Assembly: GCA_963783575.1 (NCBI GenBank) | Contig: CAWAOD010000012.1 | Location: forward strand, 1 to 64,000 | Direction of reading: 5' to 3' | Origin: an uncultured Spirochaetota bacterium | Lineage (GTDB): Bacteria; Spirochaetota; Brevinematia; Brevinematales; JAOACQ01 | Length of the DNA: 64,000 nt | Part shown: piece after piece, positions 1 through 6,000 of the stretch | Position numbering within the stretch: the stretch's first letter is position 1 | Layout: each line of letters starts with the position of its first letter | Position numbers: made by a program

Positions 1-3000
1 GGGTGGGGGTGGTTTTTCATAAACACCTATTAGGTAAATGTTACCACCCCTTACCCCACATTCGACAGGCTCAGTGCATCGCTCCTAAAATAGGAAGGGA
101 ATAGTTTTCACAAATATAAATCGCTCAGTTTAGGGTATATTTATATTAAACTTCTATTTTTGACATATTTCATATTATTCTTTATTATATTTTATTGGAA
201 TATTATAGGATAGAAAAATATATTCTTAAATTAACATTTTTTATTAAACATATCTTTTAACTCGGGAAGTAAATAAACAGAATGCATGAATACCCTGTTA
301 CACAAAGGATCCTGCAGATCGCCGTAAAAACAGCCAATGAAAATCACGCCTCGAAAGTAACAAAAATCTCGCTTGTAGTCGGTGAACAATCCGGTTTTAT
401 CGGGGAATCCATTCAGATGTATTTTGACATATTATCCAGGGGCACTGTAGCCGAGGGAGCGGAAGTAATTATTCGCCCGGTCAGGTATAAATTAAAATGC
501 GAATCCTGCGGCAATTATTTTAGAAGGAAAAATTATTCCTTTATATGCCCAAGATGCGGCGGAAACGGTATTCCATCAGAAGTTGGTAAAGAGTTTTTTG
601 TTAAAAATATTGAAATTCTCGAATCGGAAAAAATGGAATAAATATTAGTTAATTTTCATACTGAAATAAGAGGTTGTAATGGCAAAGGAAACTATAGAAA
701 TAATGCAGGACATTTATGACGAAAATACAAAATTATCTGATAATATTCAATGGAAATTGACTGGCAAGAAAATTTTTTCCGTTAATATTCTTGGGGCACC
801 CGGTGTCGGCAAGACATCGGTGTTGATAAAACTTATCGATAAATTAAAACAGCCCGTTACTGTAATTGAAGGGGATGTCGAATCCGACATTGACACTAAA
901 ACCCTCCGCAATCTTAACATCCCCGCTTATCAGATCAATACTCATGGAGGTTGTCATCTCGATGCGCCGATGCTTTCAAAAGCAATTGACGAATTTCCAA
1001 TAAAGGAAAACAGCTTTCTTTTTATTGAAAATATAGGCAACCTAATATGTCCTGCCGAATTTGAAATCGGCGAACACATAAAGATACTGATTTGTTCCAC
1101 AACCGACGGGAGTGATAAACCTTATAAATACCCGCTTGCTTTTGAAAAGGCAAATGCCGTAATTGTAAACAAATCGGATTTACTTCCATATACCGATTTT
1201 AACAGGACTTTTTTTATTGAAGGGATAAAAAAACACAATAAAAATTCTGAAATATTTTTTACATCATCAAAGAATGATGATGGATTTGATGAAATAGCAA
1301 AATGGCTTTTAAAATATAAAACAAATATAATGGCGGTTTGAAAATGTGTTATGCAATACCCGGAAAGGTTACAGGATTTGAAAATAATAAAGTAATAGTT
1401 GATTATTTCGGTGAAAAGAAAAAGGCCATCAATGAATTCCATAATTTAAAGATCGGTGATTATATTTACGCGCAGGGAGGTTATGTCATCGATAAAATCC
1501 CGGCAAAAGAAGCCAGGCAAACATTATCATTATGGAAAGAGGTCTTTTTTGACCTTCAGGAAACAGATGTTAAGCTTTCCAGAATGGATACAGATGGAAA
1601 AAATATAGGAAAGAATGTTGTTCAGATCCTTGATAAAGCTACACAGGGAATATCATTAAAACAAAGCGAACTAAATGAATTAATTAATCTTAAAAAACCC
1701 GAAGAACTGGAAACGCTTTATCATTCCGCGAATTTTTTAAGACAGAAGCATCTTGGAAATTCCTGCTGTGTACACGGAATCATAGAATTCTCAAATTATT
1801 GTGAAAAAGCCTGCCAGTATTGCGGTATTTCCGGAATTGCAAAAAATATTGAACGCTACAGAATGACAAAAAATGAAATTGTCGATTGCGCTTATGAAGC
1901 GGTTTCAAGATATGGATTTAAAGCCCTTGTTCTTCAGAGCGGAGAGGACACTTTTTATTCACCGGATGATCTTGCCGAGATTATTTCGGAAATAAAAAAG
2001 AAAATGCCGGTACTGATCTTTATCAGCACCGGTGAAATAGGAATTGAAGGTCTTCAAAAACTTTACAACGCAGGCGCCAGAGGACTTCTGATGAGGTTTG
2101 AGACAAGTAATCCTGAGTTGTACTCAAAATTGCGGCCCGGGCAGAATCTTAAATCAAGGCTTGATCATTTGAAGGCGGCTTACAGGATGGGATATCTCAT
2201 CATAACCGGCGGGCTCATCGGTCTGCCGGGCCAGACTGAACAGGATTTGATAAACGACATTATTTTGACAAAAGAACTCCATACCGAAATGTACAGCTTC
2301 GGCCCATTCATTCCAAGCCCAAATACACTTCTATCAAAAGAAAAGCTGACCGATACGGATACGATACTCAAAGTACTGGCACTAAGCCGTATCATCGACC
2401 CCAAAAACGCTAAAATACTTGTTACGACAGGGTTTGAAACATTTGACAAAGATGCCCGCAGTAAGGGGCTTATGGCGGGAGCAAATTCAGTGATGCTTAA
2501 TGTAACCCCGGAAAGGTTTAAAAAGAACTATACTATTTATCCGAACAGGGCACATATCGATGAAAGCCTTGAAAGTCAGATCGATATAACACTTTCACTA
2601 CTTAAGAGCCTTGGAAGAGCGCCAACGGATTTAGGAATAGGCTAAAAATATAAATCCCTTTCGCCATTCTTAATTTTATCCAGGTTATCAATCATCTTTT
2701 TCTTTAGCTCCGGCTTTTCTATCCCGCCCAATATGGAATTGATTAACTTGAGACCCTTTACTTTTGTTTCCGGTTTTGCGTAATCCATAAGATATTCCTG
2801 GAATGTAAAAACACCGTTCGGCATGCAGAATTCTTTTATTAAACCGGGTTTTGCAAGATCCATGAAATCGTTCCCCACCCTGCCCTTCCGGTAACAGCCA
2901 GTGCAGAAAGAGGGAATATATCCCTGGTCTATAAGGTTTGAGATCACTTCATCAACTGAGCGGTGATCGCCAAGCGAGAACTGGCTCCCGGAATTCTCAT

Positions 3001-6000
3001 TCCCAGAATGGGAATAAGCCCCTGGGTTTGTTCTGGAACCAGCCGATATCTGGCTTATTCCATAATTGAAAAGCTCGGTCCTTAAAGTCTCGTTTTCTCT
3101 TGTGCTTAAAATCATTCCTGTATATGGAAGCGCAATTCTGATTATTGCAACAAGCTTTTTAAAATCCTTATCGCTCACAGGATAAGGAATGTGCGATGCA
3201 AGCGGTGCGTTTTGAGCCGGTTCAATCCTTGGAACACTGACGGTATGGGGTCCGCACCCGAATATTTTTTCAAGATGGCTCGCGTGTTCCATCATAGCAA
3301 GGACTTCAAAACGGTAGTCTGCGAGCCCGAATAAAGCGCCGATGCCTATATCATCGATTCCTCCGTCCATAGCCCTGTCCATAACAGTCAAACGGTATTC
3401 GTAATCGGATTTTGATCCGACCGGGTGGTATTTTTTGTATAAAACCGGATCATAAGTCTCCTGAAAACAAACATAAGTTCCGATTTTTTCCTTTTTTAAT
3501 GCTGCAAAACCCTCCTTTTCAAGAGGAGCAATTTCAACATTTATGCGCCTGATTGTACTAGTACCTGCCCGGGCTTTATAAGCCGTTCGAATTGCTTCAA
3601 AAAAATATTCAAGAGGATTCTCAGCATCTTCTCCGCAAAGCATTAATATTCTTTTATGTCCCTCGTTTAAAAGGGATACCACTTCCGAATCGATCTGCTT
3701 CATATTCAAAACCACACGCCGGAGTTCAAGATTATCTTTTCTAAAAGCACAGTATAAGCAATTATTGGAGCATTTATTGCCTATATAAAGAGGGGCAAAT
3801 AAAACAATCCTTTTACCGTATATTTTCTCTTTTACCATTCCGGCAGTTTTAAATATCTTTTTTATTTCAGTATCGTCCTGTAATCTCAACAATTTCGATA
3901 CATCAATCAGATCGAGGCCTTTCAATTTCAGAGCCTTGTTCAAAATCCCATCGACCTCAGCCTCCGAAGGCTCTTTACCTTCAATCAATTCATATAGTTT
4001 ATCCCTATCTATAAAATTATAATTTTTTAAATTATTATTTTTTGCCGCATTCATTTATCTTCTCCTGTTTTATTCTTTGTTATAAATGATCTTCTGATCA
4101 AGAAGTCATTCATTGCCCAAAACTTGCAATACTGTTTTGGGACACACTTAATCTCCCAATATCTGACCGATATAAATTCCATTAGCACCGGCCTGCATTA
4201 AACCCCGTGTTATACCCGCCCCGTCGCCGGCGACAAATAAATTTAAAATATTTGACTGAAAATATTGGTCAATATGTATAATATTGGAATAAAATTTAAC
4301 TTCCACACCATATAAAAGGGTTTCATTTCCGGCTACTCCGGGTACAATTGTATCAAGAGCCTCTATCATCTCTTTAATATCAAGCAAAATCCTGTAGGGA
4401 ATAACAAGGCTCAAATCACCCGGCAAAGCATCATTTAAAGTAGGTTCGATATTATTCCTTTTTAGACGTTCTATAGTTGTTCTCCTGCCTCTGCGAAAAT
4501 CACCATACCTCTGTACGATAATTTTATTACCGGCAAGCATATTTCCGAGGCCCGCTATATATTTCCCGTATTCGATCGGATTGTGAAAAGGCTTTGTAAA
4601 ATAATTCGAAACCAGGATGGCAAAGTTTGTGTTGTTTGATTTGAGCTCTTCTTTATAGCTATGGCCATTCACTACAGCCAGGCCAGGAATGGCATTTCCT
4701 GCAATTGAATCAGCATCTTGAATCGTGTCCGCAAACTTATTATCGTAATATTCCACTGAAACCATACCGGAAGGATTCTGGCAGAAAGTCCTGACTTTAT
4801 CGTCAAATGTGGGGGTATAAAAAATGAATTTACCCTCGTACAACGCTTCATTTATCACTTTCATAACTTCATTTCTGACTTCAACCCTGACTCCGATATC
4901 TACCGGTCCAACATCTGTCTCTATACTGAATTTATTGCAGATTTTTGACAGCCAGTCCGATCCTTCCCTGCCGACCGCAAGAACAACTCTATCTGCATAA
5001 TATTCTTTATCGGCAATTACACCCTGTATTGCGCCGTCTTTTATTATCAGGTCAGATACCGGATTTTTAAATGATAGTGAAATTCCCCTATCCAGCAAAT
5101 AATTTTGAATCTGTGTATAAATCTGGTAACTTTGCTCCGTTCCCAAATGCCTTATGGGACATTCAATCAGCCTCATATTGCTTCGAATCGCTTTTGTCCT
5201 GATTTCTTCAATCATTTCCGGATGATCTACACCGTAAACTTTTTTATCGGCATTGTAGGACAAATATATTTGATCCACATACCGGATTAACTCATTTGTT
5301 TTATCGAACCCGATATAACGCGGCAATTCGCCTCCAACATCGGCGGAAAGAGACAGCTTACCGTCGCTATAGGCCCCCGCTCCTGAAAACCCGGATGTGA
5401 TGCTGCAGGGGATGCAATTGGCGCACTGGCCTGTTTTTCTTTTAAGACAAATCCTATCCTGAATAGCCCTGCCTTTCTCCAGAACCAAAATTTTAAAATC
5501 AGGATGTTTTTTATTGAGCTCATAAGCCGTAAATATCCCCGCCGGCCCGGCTCCCACAATGATTACGTCATATTTCATTCATTCAGCCTTCTATTGTATA
5601 GCATAACACACCAGAAGCAAGCATATAATATTATTATCAAATTTTTAAGAAAAGTCAAGCCAGGGCATTCTATAATTCACAGTTTGACTTTTGTTTCATC
5701 TTAGGATAATATAATCGTTTATATATAAATATCCAAATAAACAAAGGTTTAATTTGTGAGTAAAAGAAATATTAAATTACATTTATGTTTTGACGGGAAG
5801 AATTACTGCGGCTGGCAGAAACAGCCAAATCATGCCAATGTACAGGGTGTGCTTGAAGCCAAACTTTCAAGGATATTGAAAGACAGGATTAAAATGACAG
5901 GTATCGGCAGAACTGACGCGGGAGCGCATGCCATTTTTTTTACCGCAAATTTTTTTACAACGAATTTTACGCTTCCTGTAGAAAAAATGGCTTTTGTTTT

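Follow-up and report, generated by a model that had tools for sequence, protein, structure and literature searches.

In the described route to the iron unit of [NiFe] hydrogenases, HypC or HybG (PF01455) acts together with the scaffold HypD (PF01924) and with HypE (TIGR02124) and HypF (TIGR00143), which form the carbamoyl-phosphate route to cyanide. To our knowledge, HypD, HypE and HypF are regarded as required for every [NiFe] hydrogenase. Bound to Cys2 of HybG/HypC, the Fe(CN)2CO unit reaches the precursor of the large subunit (PMC8692609, PMC11565642), and according to a review no radical SAM enzyme takes part in making the [NiFe] centre (PMC8855341). From [FeFe]-hydrogenase maturation, HydE (T. 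maritima structures PDB 3CIX and 7O1O) and the tyrosine lyase HydG (TIGR03955; PDB 4WCX, 4RTB) are the closest points of comparison for the locus described below. In CPR bacteria, a protein family termed fam002 adjoins group-3b hydrogenases (Jaffe et al. 2020, PMC7304191); our guess is that it corresponds to the fusion family treated here, although the consulted portion of that paper mentions neither a radical-SAM domain nor HydG nor missing HypDEF. The term fam002 was not found in the supplement files searched, and the text of bioRxiv 10.1101/328856 gave no whole-word match for hyp, hyd or radical SAM. Our search of the open literature, with subscription journals outside its scope, found no paper on a HypC/HydE-like fusion or a HypDEF-free route.

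The window, a stretch of 64,000 nucleotides from an uncultured bacterium of the Brevinematales (Spirochaetota), opens at a contig end, and its genome (G000) is 89.85% complete. Its first features are:

160..188, + strand: weak match to a sigma-70-like promoter ahead of hypA, 11 of 12 consensus positions
282..641, + strand: hypA, nickel metallochaperone, 119 aa, two CxxC pairs (PF01155 E 1.8e-28; TIGR00100 88.9 bits, cut-off 88.1)
679..1341, + strand: hypB, nickel-insertion GTPase, 220 aa (TIGR00073 209 bits, cut-off 121)
1344..2645, + strand: HypC/HydE-like radical-SAM fusion (P0001), 433 aa, ATG at 1344 (PF01455, PF04055)
1344..1535, + strand: HypC domain of the fusion, residues 1-64 (PF01455 E 1.5e-11)
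1347-1349, + strand: Cys2 of the fused HypC domain
1767..1775, + strand: Cys142-x-His144, clade signature, where T. maritima HydE has His52/Arg54
1800..1823, + strand: radical-SAM motif CxxxCxxC of the fusion (Cys153, 157, 160), found in 119 of 119 fusions
2642..4054, - strand: hydG, tyrosine lyase that forms CO and CN, 470 aa (P0002; TIGR03955 503 bits, cut-off 312)

The promoter is a consensus match only, since 18 such sites stand against 13.9 expected in shuffles. The initial annotation had placed hypA, hypB and the fusion facing hydG, and this arrangement is correct, with hypA, hypB and hydG all above their TIGRFAM cut-offs. The HydG cluster motifs it reported are intact as well: a motif check found CxxxCxxC, the GPHT histidine (the dangler-iron His) and the C-terminal CxxCx22C. 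The stop codons of the fusion gene and hydG overlap. These two genes are convergent and not co-transcribed in this genome, which also holds a full [FeFe] system.

A profile search of the genome agreed with the earlier inventory. HypD gave no match, and HypE none over the cut-off, the best (43 bits against 252) being positions 53149-54135 of the window, whose product presumably has a ThiL-like N-terminus. A full HypF is likewise missing, the best match, below the cut-off, being a Kae1-only protein on contig C9 (133 bits). This HypF-like gene was considered as a general cyanide source and rejected; it occurs, in a frame of 526-550 aa, in only 5 of 63 carriers of the fusion. As in the HypCDEF route, HypA, HypB and HycI are retained, with two HycI-like genes on contigs C13 and C14, and both group-4 large subunits (C13:68968 and C14:389243) have RxCGxC and DPCxxC, motifs that are absent from a third PF00346 protein, encoded on C18. 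A separate canonical HydE and HydF were found together with an [FeFe] large subunit on C13/C14. The window hydG is the sole hydG of the genome in this search and must therefore also serve the [FeFe] enzyme there.

HypD and the fusion exclude each other in two groups of bacteria. Among 151 Omnitrophota genomes, sought at a completeness of at least 90%, free HypC occurs in 41, the fused form in 16 and a fragment in one; HypD, present in 42, was found in all 41 free-HypC genomes and in none of the 16 carriers. A [NiFe] large subunit is encoded by 59 of these genomes (weak PF00374 matches, with E above 1e-11 in 13 genomes, were excluded from such counts), of which 42 have HypD, 16 the fusion, and one, G162, a broken canonical locus with a fragment of HypF where the contig ends. 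The HypC and HypD counts reported for 43 Brevinematia genomes were reproduced, HypC occurring in 21 and HypD in 0 of the 13 with a fused and 8 of the 8 with a free HypC, in groups whose sizes track families. Over several phyla, HypD was found in 1 of 50 carriers; HypE exceeded its cut-off in 1 of 63 carriers versus 16 of 16 HypD controls, and HypF in 1 of 63. In line with the one outside carrier said to keep hypDEF, a carrier bin (G037) has HypD, HypE and HypF and no HydG. This bin, and the fact that most genomes are bins, that of the window included, could suggest that HypD, HypE and HypF were merely lost through incompleteness, or that the hydrogenases are metal-free relics. We consider this very improbable: the 41 of 41 against 0 of 16 come from the same collection, the cassette occupies the hypFCDE slot, and three carriers that are single chromosomes (G020, G031, G047) combine the fusion with HydG and with a group-4 large subunit (which PF00374 misses and PF00346 detects in G031), while no HypD, HypE, HypF, HydF, second HydE or [FeFe] enzyme was found in them.

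Within 10 kb of the fusion, a [NiFe] large subunit is found in 61 of 80 genome loci, with none in the retrieved stretch of the other 19, and the usual order is [NiFe] operon-hycI-hypA-fusion. The fusion has the place of the HypCDEF genes, after hycI and hypA at the operon end; the same group-4 operon ends with hypA-hypF-C-D-E in loci L170 and L172 and with hypA-fusion(-hydG) in L155, L156, L158 and L164. The clients are the same too. Carrier large subunits reach 85-89% identity with those of HypD genomes and share their L1, L2, PRG and P[TS] motifs. On the large-subunit tree the labels HypD and fusion switch 10 times, at least 8 of these changes being forced by branches with a support of at least 95. 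Contrary to what relics would show, RxCGxC and DPCxxC are intact beside the fusion in 47 and 48 of 49 group-3b and in 12 of 12 group-4 subunits, the misses being truncated frames; in metagenome loci the nickel motifs are present in 23 and 22 of 23.

The HypC half of the window protein scores 44.7 bits with PF01455 (cut-off 28.5) and 42.5 bits with TIGR00074, below the cut-off of 48. That 118 of the 120 best homologues combine PF01455 with PF04055 was confirmed. Cys2, earlier called invariant, is kept in 118 of 119 aligned fusions. Different from free HypC is the loss of the conserved histidine of the VHxGFA motif, which we take to be His51 of E. coli HypC: it is present in 7 of 7 free HypC sequences compared, whereas the 119 fusions have Gln (108), Thr (8) or Ala (3), and the window protein Gln44. 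Of 80 metagenome loci from the deeper branches, 19 have the barrel with the Cys-x-His signature but no HypC fused to it. No hypC lies nearby in the case of at least three full-length forms (L179, L188, L195), so that HypC is either dispensable in some carriers or encoded elsewhere.

For the other half, the claim of a HydE-type barrel holds in fold, SAM motif and upper pocket. The closest fold is that of T. maritima HydE, as reported (model pLDDT 88.2, rmsd 1.5-1.6 A, TM 0.94-0.96 by target length), at 39% identity. The fusions share with it the equivalents of Q107, R159, E161, R180, M224, M291, Y303 and Y306, kept in the alignment, and that of T269; in the numbering of the fusion, CxxxCxxC, Q198, R251, E253, R272, M316, M384, Y396 and Y399 are each conserved in 118-119 of 119. 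HydE by membership it is not, because the lower-pocket residues are changed, and the TIGR03956 score of 245 bits lies under the cut-off of 254.6, as do the scores of four carriers with a single HydE-like protein. In the dimerisation model, R54, T134 and R155 of HydE contact CN ligands (PMC11826987). These residues are found in 29, 28 and 29 of 29 canonical HydE sequences, respectively, and in none of the 119 fusions (L037, a fusion truncated where its contig ends, was left out of these counts), which have R54 replaced by His, H52 by Cys, T134 by Phe or Cys and R155 by Gly or Ala. Cys142 and His144 occur in 119 of 119 fusions versus 0 of 29 canonical HydE, and the auxiliary-cluster motif Cx7Cx2C in 0 of 119 versus 24 of 29. 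In a quick tree the barrel forms its own branch (SH-aLRT 100). By sequence, it is a separate clade with a HydE-like upper and a rebuilt lower pocket.

HydG is over its cut-off in 59 of 63 carriers, with G037 and three further bins lacking it. HydF exceeds its cut-off in only 19 of the 63, and among 84 HydF-negative Omnitrophota, HydG occurs in 10 of 10 carriers versus 1 of 74 others; Fisher p-values for such HydG/HydF counts overstate the significance, as the genomes are related. HydF together with an [FeFe] hydrogenase, as in a HydEFG system, is not a general feature of the family; in G000 a separate gene set provides both. HypC, the HydE-like barrel and HydG are also joined in triple fusions (20 clusters), a single chain of about 900 aa; the model of one with 921 aa (pLDDT 88.2, pTM 0.55) has a disordered linker at 435-451, so that no fixed arrangement of its two halves is indicated. 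By score and motifs, the carrier HydG is a full member of its family. A cassette-specific HydG clade was rejected: carrier and non-carrier sequences, including those of [FeFe] operons, are interleaved, with 15 changes on the tree for carriers without HydF. What sets HydG of carriers apart is its retention in genomes that have no HydE, HydF or [FeFe] hydrogenase, and its position after the HypC/HydE-like gene, either as a neighbour or as part of one fused frame.

The interleaving would also fit a fusion that is simply an [FeFe]-maturation HydE with an incidental HypC domain, its hydG serving an [FeFe] enzyme. HydE is indeed the nearest match in fold and sequence, canonical HydE too occurs fused to HydG (P0142-P0145), and G000 combines an [FeFe] system with a single hydG. 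Nevertheless this reading is extremely unlikely. HydF is not over the cut-off in 44 of 63 carriers, no [FeFe] large subunit was found in the 12 HydF-negative carriers tested, a separate canonical HydE exists in G000, G014, L045 and L082, R54, T134 and R155 are replaced, and the gene is located in [NiFe] operons; the closed genomes without any [FeFe] enzyme found largely refute it.

The proposal that HydG/HydE-type chemistry replaces HypDEF is supported by the exclusion of HypD in two groups, by HydG without HydF or [FeFe] enzyme, by the slot shared with hypFCDE and by the triple fusions; it held in every genomic test made. Counting against it are the convergent and only hydG of G000 beside an [FeFe] system, the lost HypC histidine, the barrels that have no fused HypC, the genome loci with no large subunit in the retrieved stretch, and the carrier bins that lack HydG, G037 with its HypDEF among them. 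On this genomic evidence we think that HydG and the fusion likely replace HypD, HypE and HypF in the [NiFe] cofactor maturation of many uncultured anaerobes, and that the product is probably still Fe(CN)2CO. The HypD scaffold and the carbamoyl-phosphate cyanide route of HypE and HypF would be dispensed with, and HypC is joined to a radical-SAM barrel instead. A first step can be taken over from the [FeFe] route, for whose HydG it is established: HydG would split two tyrosines into 2 CO and 2 CN, release Fe(II)(cysteine)(CO)2(CN), termed complex B, and be left with the second CN on its auxiliary cluster. The objection that a second cyanide must come from elsewhere stands insofar as complex B has one CN, but it loses weight since HydG yields a second CN per synthon (PMC8855341). 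Complex B would then move into the HydE-like barrel with its conserved SAM site and upper pocket, where attack of the 5'-deoxyadenosyl radical on the cysteine sulfur, as in HydE, may free the iron from the cysteine chelate. Least sure is the third step, in which the rebuilt lower pocket (Met316, Cys142, His144) would keep the iron mononuclear, without dimerising, and one CO would be exchanged for CN; we offer this chemistry tentatively, as possible rather than probable. By analogy with HypC/HybG, Fe(CN)2CO could finally pass to Cys2 of the fused HypC domain and on to the apo large subunit, where HypA, with or without HypB, would add nickel and HycI would trim the C-terminus where one exists.

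We know of no enzyme that swaps CO for CN. This lack of precedent, the composition of complex B, Fe(CO)2CN, and the fact that no dedicated cyanide enzyme accompanies the cassette in the loci examined speak for a different product of the same cassette, namely a synthon passed on unchanged to give a non-canonical Ni-Fe(CO)2(CN) site. Such a site is improbable when the large subunits served are nearly those of HypD genomes, with PRG and P[TS] kept, when the tree shows repeated switches between the two routes, and when HydG itself produces the second CN. Alternatively, the barrel could be a binding scaffold in place of HypD that collects free CO and CN from HydG, making radical chemistry on complex B unneeded; this idea shares with our reading the replacement of HypD but proposes another mechanism. 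Whether HydG releases CO and CN in free form, as has been reported, is a matter of debate (PMC10114646, PMC8855341), and the invariant Cys142 and His144 could bind iron like Cys41 of HypD. The near-complete conservation of SAM motif and pocket residues is what one would expect if the SAM enzyme is active and its pocket takes complex B, and we therefore regard the scaffold as rather unlikely.

While its parts belong to known families, the route itself belongs to neither known maturation system. We consider it likely that a second, tyrosine-fed route to the [NiFe] iron unit exists, in which HydG and a HypC-fused relative of HydE replace HypDEF, and that one route has taken the place of the other many times, as a cassette, in front of nearly identical hydrogenases. 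If so, one or two genes would replace four, with CO and CN derived from tyrosine, and two maturation pathways long held unrelated would be linked, at the price of a new CO-for-CN exchange on iron. Fe(CN)2CO assembly would gain a second testable system, for which the synthetic substrate, complex B, is already in use, and heterologous hydrogenase production a compact cassette. Annotations that take such genes for biotin synthase or for evidence of [FeFe] hydrogenases would be corrected, and hydrogenase maturation would be explained in small-genome anaerobes such as Omnitrophota, Margulisbacteria, Brevinematales and probably Patescibacteria.

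The 5' end of the window is the start of contig C12 of the source genome (G000), and the four genes of interest follow directly:

282-641, + strand, hypA
679-1341, + strand, hypB
1344-2645, + strand, fusion ORF of 433 aa (start ATG at 1344) with HypC and radical-SAM domains
2642-4054, - strand, hydG, convergent with the fusion gene, the stop codons overlapping

The HypC domain comprises residues 1-64 of the fusion, and its radical-SAM domain is nearest to HydE, scoring 245 bits against the HydE profile, below the cut-off of 254.6. A sequence search of solved structures with the fusion matched HydE of Thermotoga maritima (E 1e-67) and HypC of Thermococcus kodakarensis (E 7e-7), and the structure model (pLDDT 88.2, pTM 0.89) matches HydE with an rmsd of 1.5-1.6 Å. 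A gene-poor region of the window holds an IS21-like pair (istA/istB-like by eye, 19814-22119) and another transposase-like ORF (15229-16620).

Profile searches of G000, which is 89.85% complete, gave no match for HypD and nothing over cut-off for HypE or HypF. The genome encodes two group-4 large subunits, each with both nickel motifs, and two HycI-like genes, and also a separate HydE, HydF and [FeFe] hydrogenase. As the window hydG is the sole copy in G000, it could belong to either route within this genome, and given the incompleteness its absences are weak proof, so that the case rests on other genomes. In G000, a 537-aa protein (C9:460331-461944, L003) further combines a HypF-like Kae1 domain (133 bits) with an unrelated N-terminal region. 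The large subunit of an Ehr-type complex (C18:152094-153632, L008) is devoid of the nickel-binding cysteines, and hydE and hydF flank an aspartase-like gene (by eye) apparently broken into three overlapping frames (C13:76548-77924).

Among 151 evenly sampled Omnitrophota genomes (requested completeness at least 90%), HypC is found in 58, free in 41, fused in 16 and as a fragment in one. HypD occurs in 42, namely in each of the 41 with free HypC and in the one with the fragment, and in 0/16 carriers of the fusion. PF00374 gave a strong match, with E no higher than 1e-11, in 58 genomes: the 42 with HypD, 15 carriers, and G162, where a HypF fragment lies at the edge of a contig. In the remaining carrier, PF00346 detected a group-4 subunit. 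Each [NiFe] genome sampled in this set has one system or the other, and both never occur together. Among 43 Brevinematia genomes, the 13 with the fusion all lack HypD and the eight with free HypC all possess it, a split that tracks families and hence represents one or few events. A HypD search of 50 of the 80 carrier genomes gave a single match, G037, which carries the fusion and hypDEF without HydG and counts against a replacement of HypD/E/F by fusion and HydG. HypE is over cut-off in 1/63 carriers versus 16/16 HypD-bearing controls. HypF is over cut-off in one of these carriers, with frames like the Kae1-only protein of G000 in five others, and is matched in all 16 controls, 14 times as a short form. 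This short HypF consists of the Kae1 domain only (about 350-390 aa), the acylphosphatase, zinc-finger and YrdC-like parts being absent, and it lies directly 5' of hypC at five mapped HypD-type Omnitrophota loci (L169, L170, L172, L173, L174). HypF1 of Cupriavidus necator is similarly short.

HydG is over cut-off in 16/16 Omnitrophota carriers, in 9/42 HypD genomes and in 76/151 genomes overall; of another 47 carriers, 43 have it. HydF is found in 6/16 and 13/47 of the two carrier groups. Among 84 HydF-negative Omnitrophota, 10/10 carriers possess HydG versus 1/74 others. The presence of HydG is tied to the fusion, and the [FeFe] system is not its sole determinant. HydG is, on the other side, absent from three carrier bins besides G037, which counts against the replacement. 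An assembly artefact, one of the rival readings of the pattern, is very unlikely in view of G020, G031 and G047, single-chromosome records that each encode a group-4 large subunit together with the fusion and HydG, and in which genome searches found no HypD, HypE, HypF, HydF, second HydE or [FeFe] enzyme; the G031 sequence is partly masked, so that one motif is unreadable and its absences are slightly weaker.

In G031 the three functions reside in a single 921-aa chain, whose gene ends the operon of the hydrogenase membrane subunits, 3' of hycI and hypA. A search of longer proteins gave 26 matches, among which 20 clusters are such HypC/HydE-like/HydG chains (38-62% identical to the fusion of the window; in one the HydG half is truncated) and four others are canonical HydE-HydG fusions. 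As the latter exist, the triple fusion reflects a HydE-type partnership with HydG and is alone no proof of a [NiFe] role. A plain role of the fusion in [FeFe] maturation is a very unlikely rival reading, against which stands that an [FeFe] large subunit was found in 0/12 HydF-negative carriers checked. The canonical [FeFe] route has natural fusions of its own, HydE-HydG and HydF-HydE (P0142-P0147). On a 71-row tree carrier HydG is intermixed with HydG of [FeFe] operons, which suggests that it is ordinary and would form the usual product. In 24/76 HydG (L055, L145, L147, L155 and others) the auxiliary-cluster motif has CTAGYRC instead of its C-terminal CxxC, and such HydG occur in carriers and [FeFe] operons alike.

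The exchange of one cassette for the other can be seen in a group-4 operon that ends with hycI-hypA-hypF-hypC-hypD-hypE at loci L170 and L172 and with hycI-hypA-fusion(-hydG) at L155, L156, L158 and L164. The L1, L2, PRG and P[TS] motifs are common to large subunits of carriers and HypD genomes, and 14 of 37 carrier-locus large subunits have a counterpart of 85-89% identity among 25 taken from HypD genomes; this comparison includes carrier loci L032 and L075, for which HypD status is known from the locus only. On a quick large-subunit tree the label switches ten times, at least eight switches being forced by branches with support of at least 95, and this repeated swap answers the objection that carrier genomes are kin more convincingly than the p-values of the co-occurrence counts. 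The near-identical client subunits and the repeated label changes argue that both routes would deliver an identical cofactor. They speak against the unlikely alternative that the cassette hands over Fe(CO)2CN unchanged, which has the ligand set of the known HydG product. An 80-aa HypA without the zinc-binding CxxC region occurs in most operons of both types (L010, L013, L055, L170 and others), and as no HypB was found in 3/5 well-assembled carriers, nickel insertion looks minimal too; the missing HypB also counts against the replacement.

Both domains are present in 118 of the 120 best homologues of the fusion, and 390 of 415 pattern-matched stretches from the GTDB species set encode relatives. 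For the best 80 of these, the record titles name Omnitrophota, Margulisbacteria/Saganbacteria, Brevinematales and a few other groups. A [NiFe] large subunit is present in the fetched stretch at 61 (49 group 3b, 12 group 4), commonly in the order [NiFe] operon, hycI, short hypA, fusion; of the 80, hydG is a separate gene at 35 and fused at one. A second scan with deeper-branching members as queries gave 80 metagenome loci, many on short or near-duplicate contigs, with HydG at 51 and a 3b large subunit at 28; BLAST with HypD, HypE, HypF and HydF references matched none of them. Two observations from these loci count against the replacement: a barrel without fused HypC at 19 loci, some of them contig-end cuts, and a free hypC alongside the fusion at nine. 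Among the former, L179, L188 and L195 have full-length unfused barrels with the Cys-x-His signature directly 5' of hydG and adjoining group-3b genes, and in the fetched stretches of at least these three forms no hypC was seen. The group-3b large subunits of L185-L187, L215, L238 and L253 stop at DPCxxCxxH without a C-terminal extension, and hycI had no match at these loci.

In an alignment of 119 distinct fusion sequences and 29 canonical HydE encoded near HydG/HydF (T. maritima HydE numbers read by hand from the structure-search alignment), the SAM cysteines, Q107, R159, E161, R180, M291, Y303 and Y306 are kept in 119/119 fusions and M224 in 118, and T269 is Thr or Ser. This conservation speaks against the less likely proposal that the barrel is a non-radical scaffold. 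Other positions are altered: R54 is His and H52 Cys in all fusions, T134 is Phe/Cys, R155 is Gly/Ala, and the Cx7Cx2C auxiliary motif is found in none, versus 24/29 canonical HydE. On a 77-row quick tree, a branch with an SH-aLRT of 100 separates the Cys-x-His group from the other rows. In the model, Cys142 and His144 lie at a spacing of two residues where a barrel strand begins, so that both probably point into the lower cavity. Cys2 of the HypC domain is retained in 118/119 fusions, and the His of free HypC is lost. In HypC/HybG, Cys2 is an iron ligand required for docking on the large-subunit precursor (PMC11565642, PMC8692609).

It is quite probable from the genomic evidence, as the initial annotation proposed, that fusion and HydG replace HypD/E/F. 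HydG would convert two tyrosines to complex B, Fe(II)(cysteine)(CO)2(CN), and a second cyanide, chemistry published for the [FeFe] route (PMC8855341). The HydE-like barrel may then remove the chelate by attacking the cysteine sulfur in HydE fashion. Its rebuilt lower pocket could hold the single iron while CN replaces one CO, and the apo large subunit would receive Fe(CN)2CO from Cys2; the CO-for-CN exchange in the barrel is the more doubtful part, and we propose it tentatively.

No paper on the fusion or a HypDEF-free route was found in open full text; subscription journals and bioRxiv supplements lie outside that search and may bear on it. The nearest mention, in PMC7304191, is a hypC-homologous family adjoining CPR group-3b hydrogenases, which had no match in the four supplement files searched, and the ESM Atlas holds automatic clusters labelled by the two domains alone. 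As the cassette shares some parts with the HypCDEF route and some with the HydEFG route but falls outside each by its defining tests, we class the HypC/HydE-like plus HydG system as a new route.
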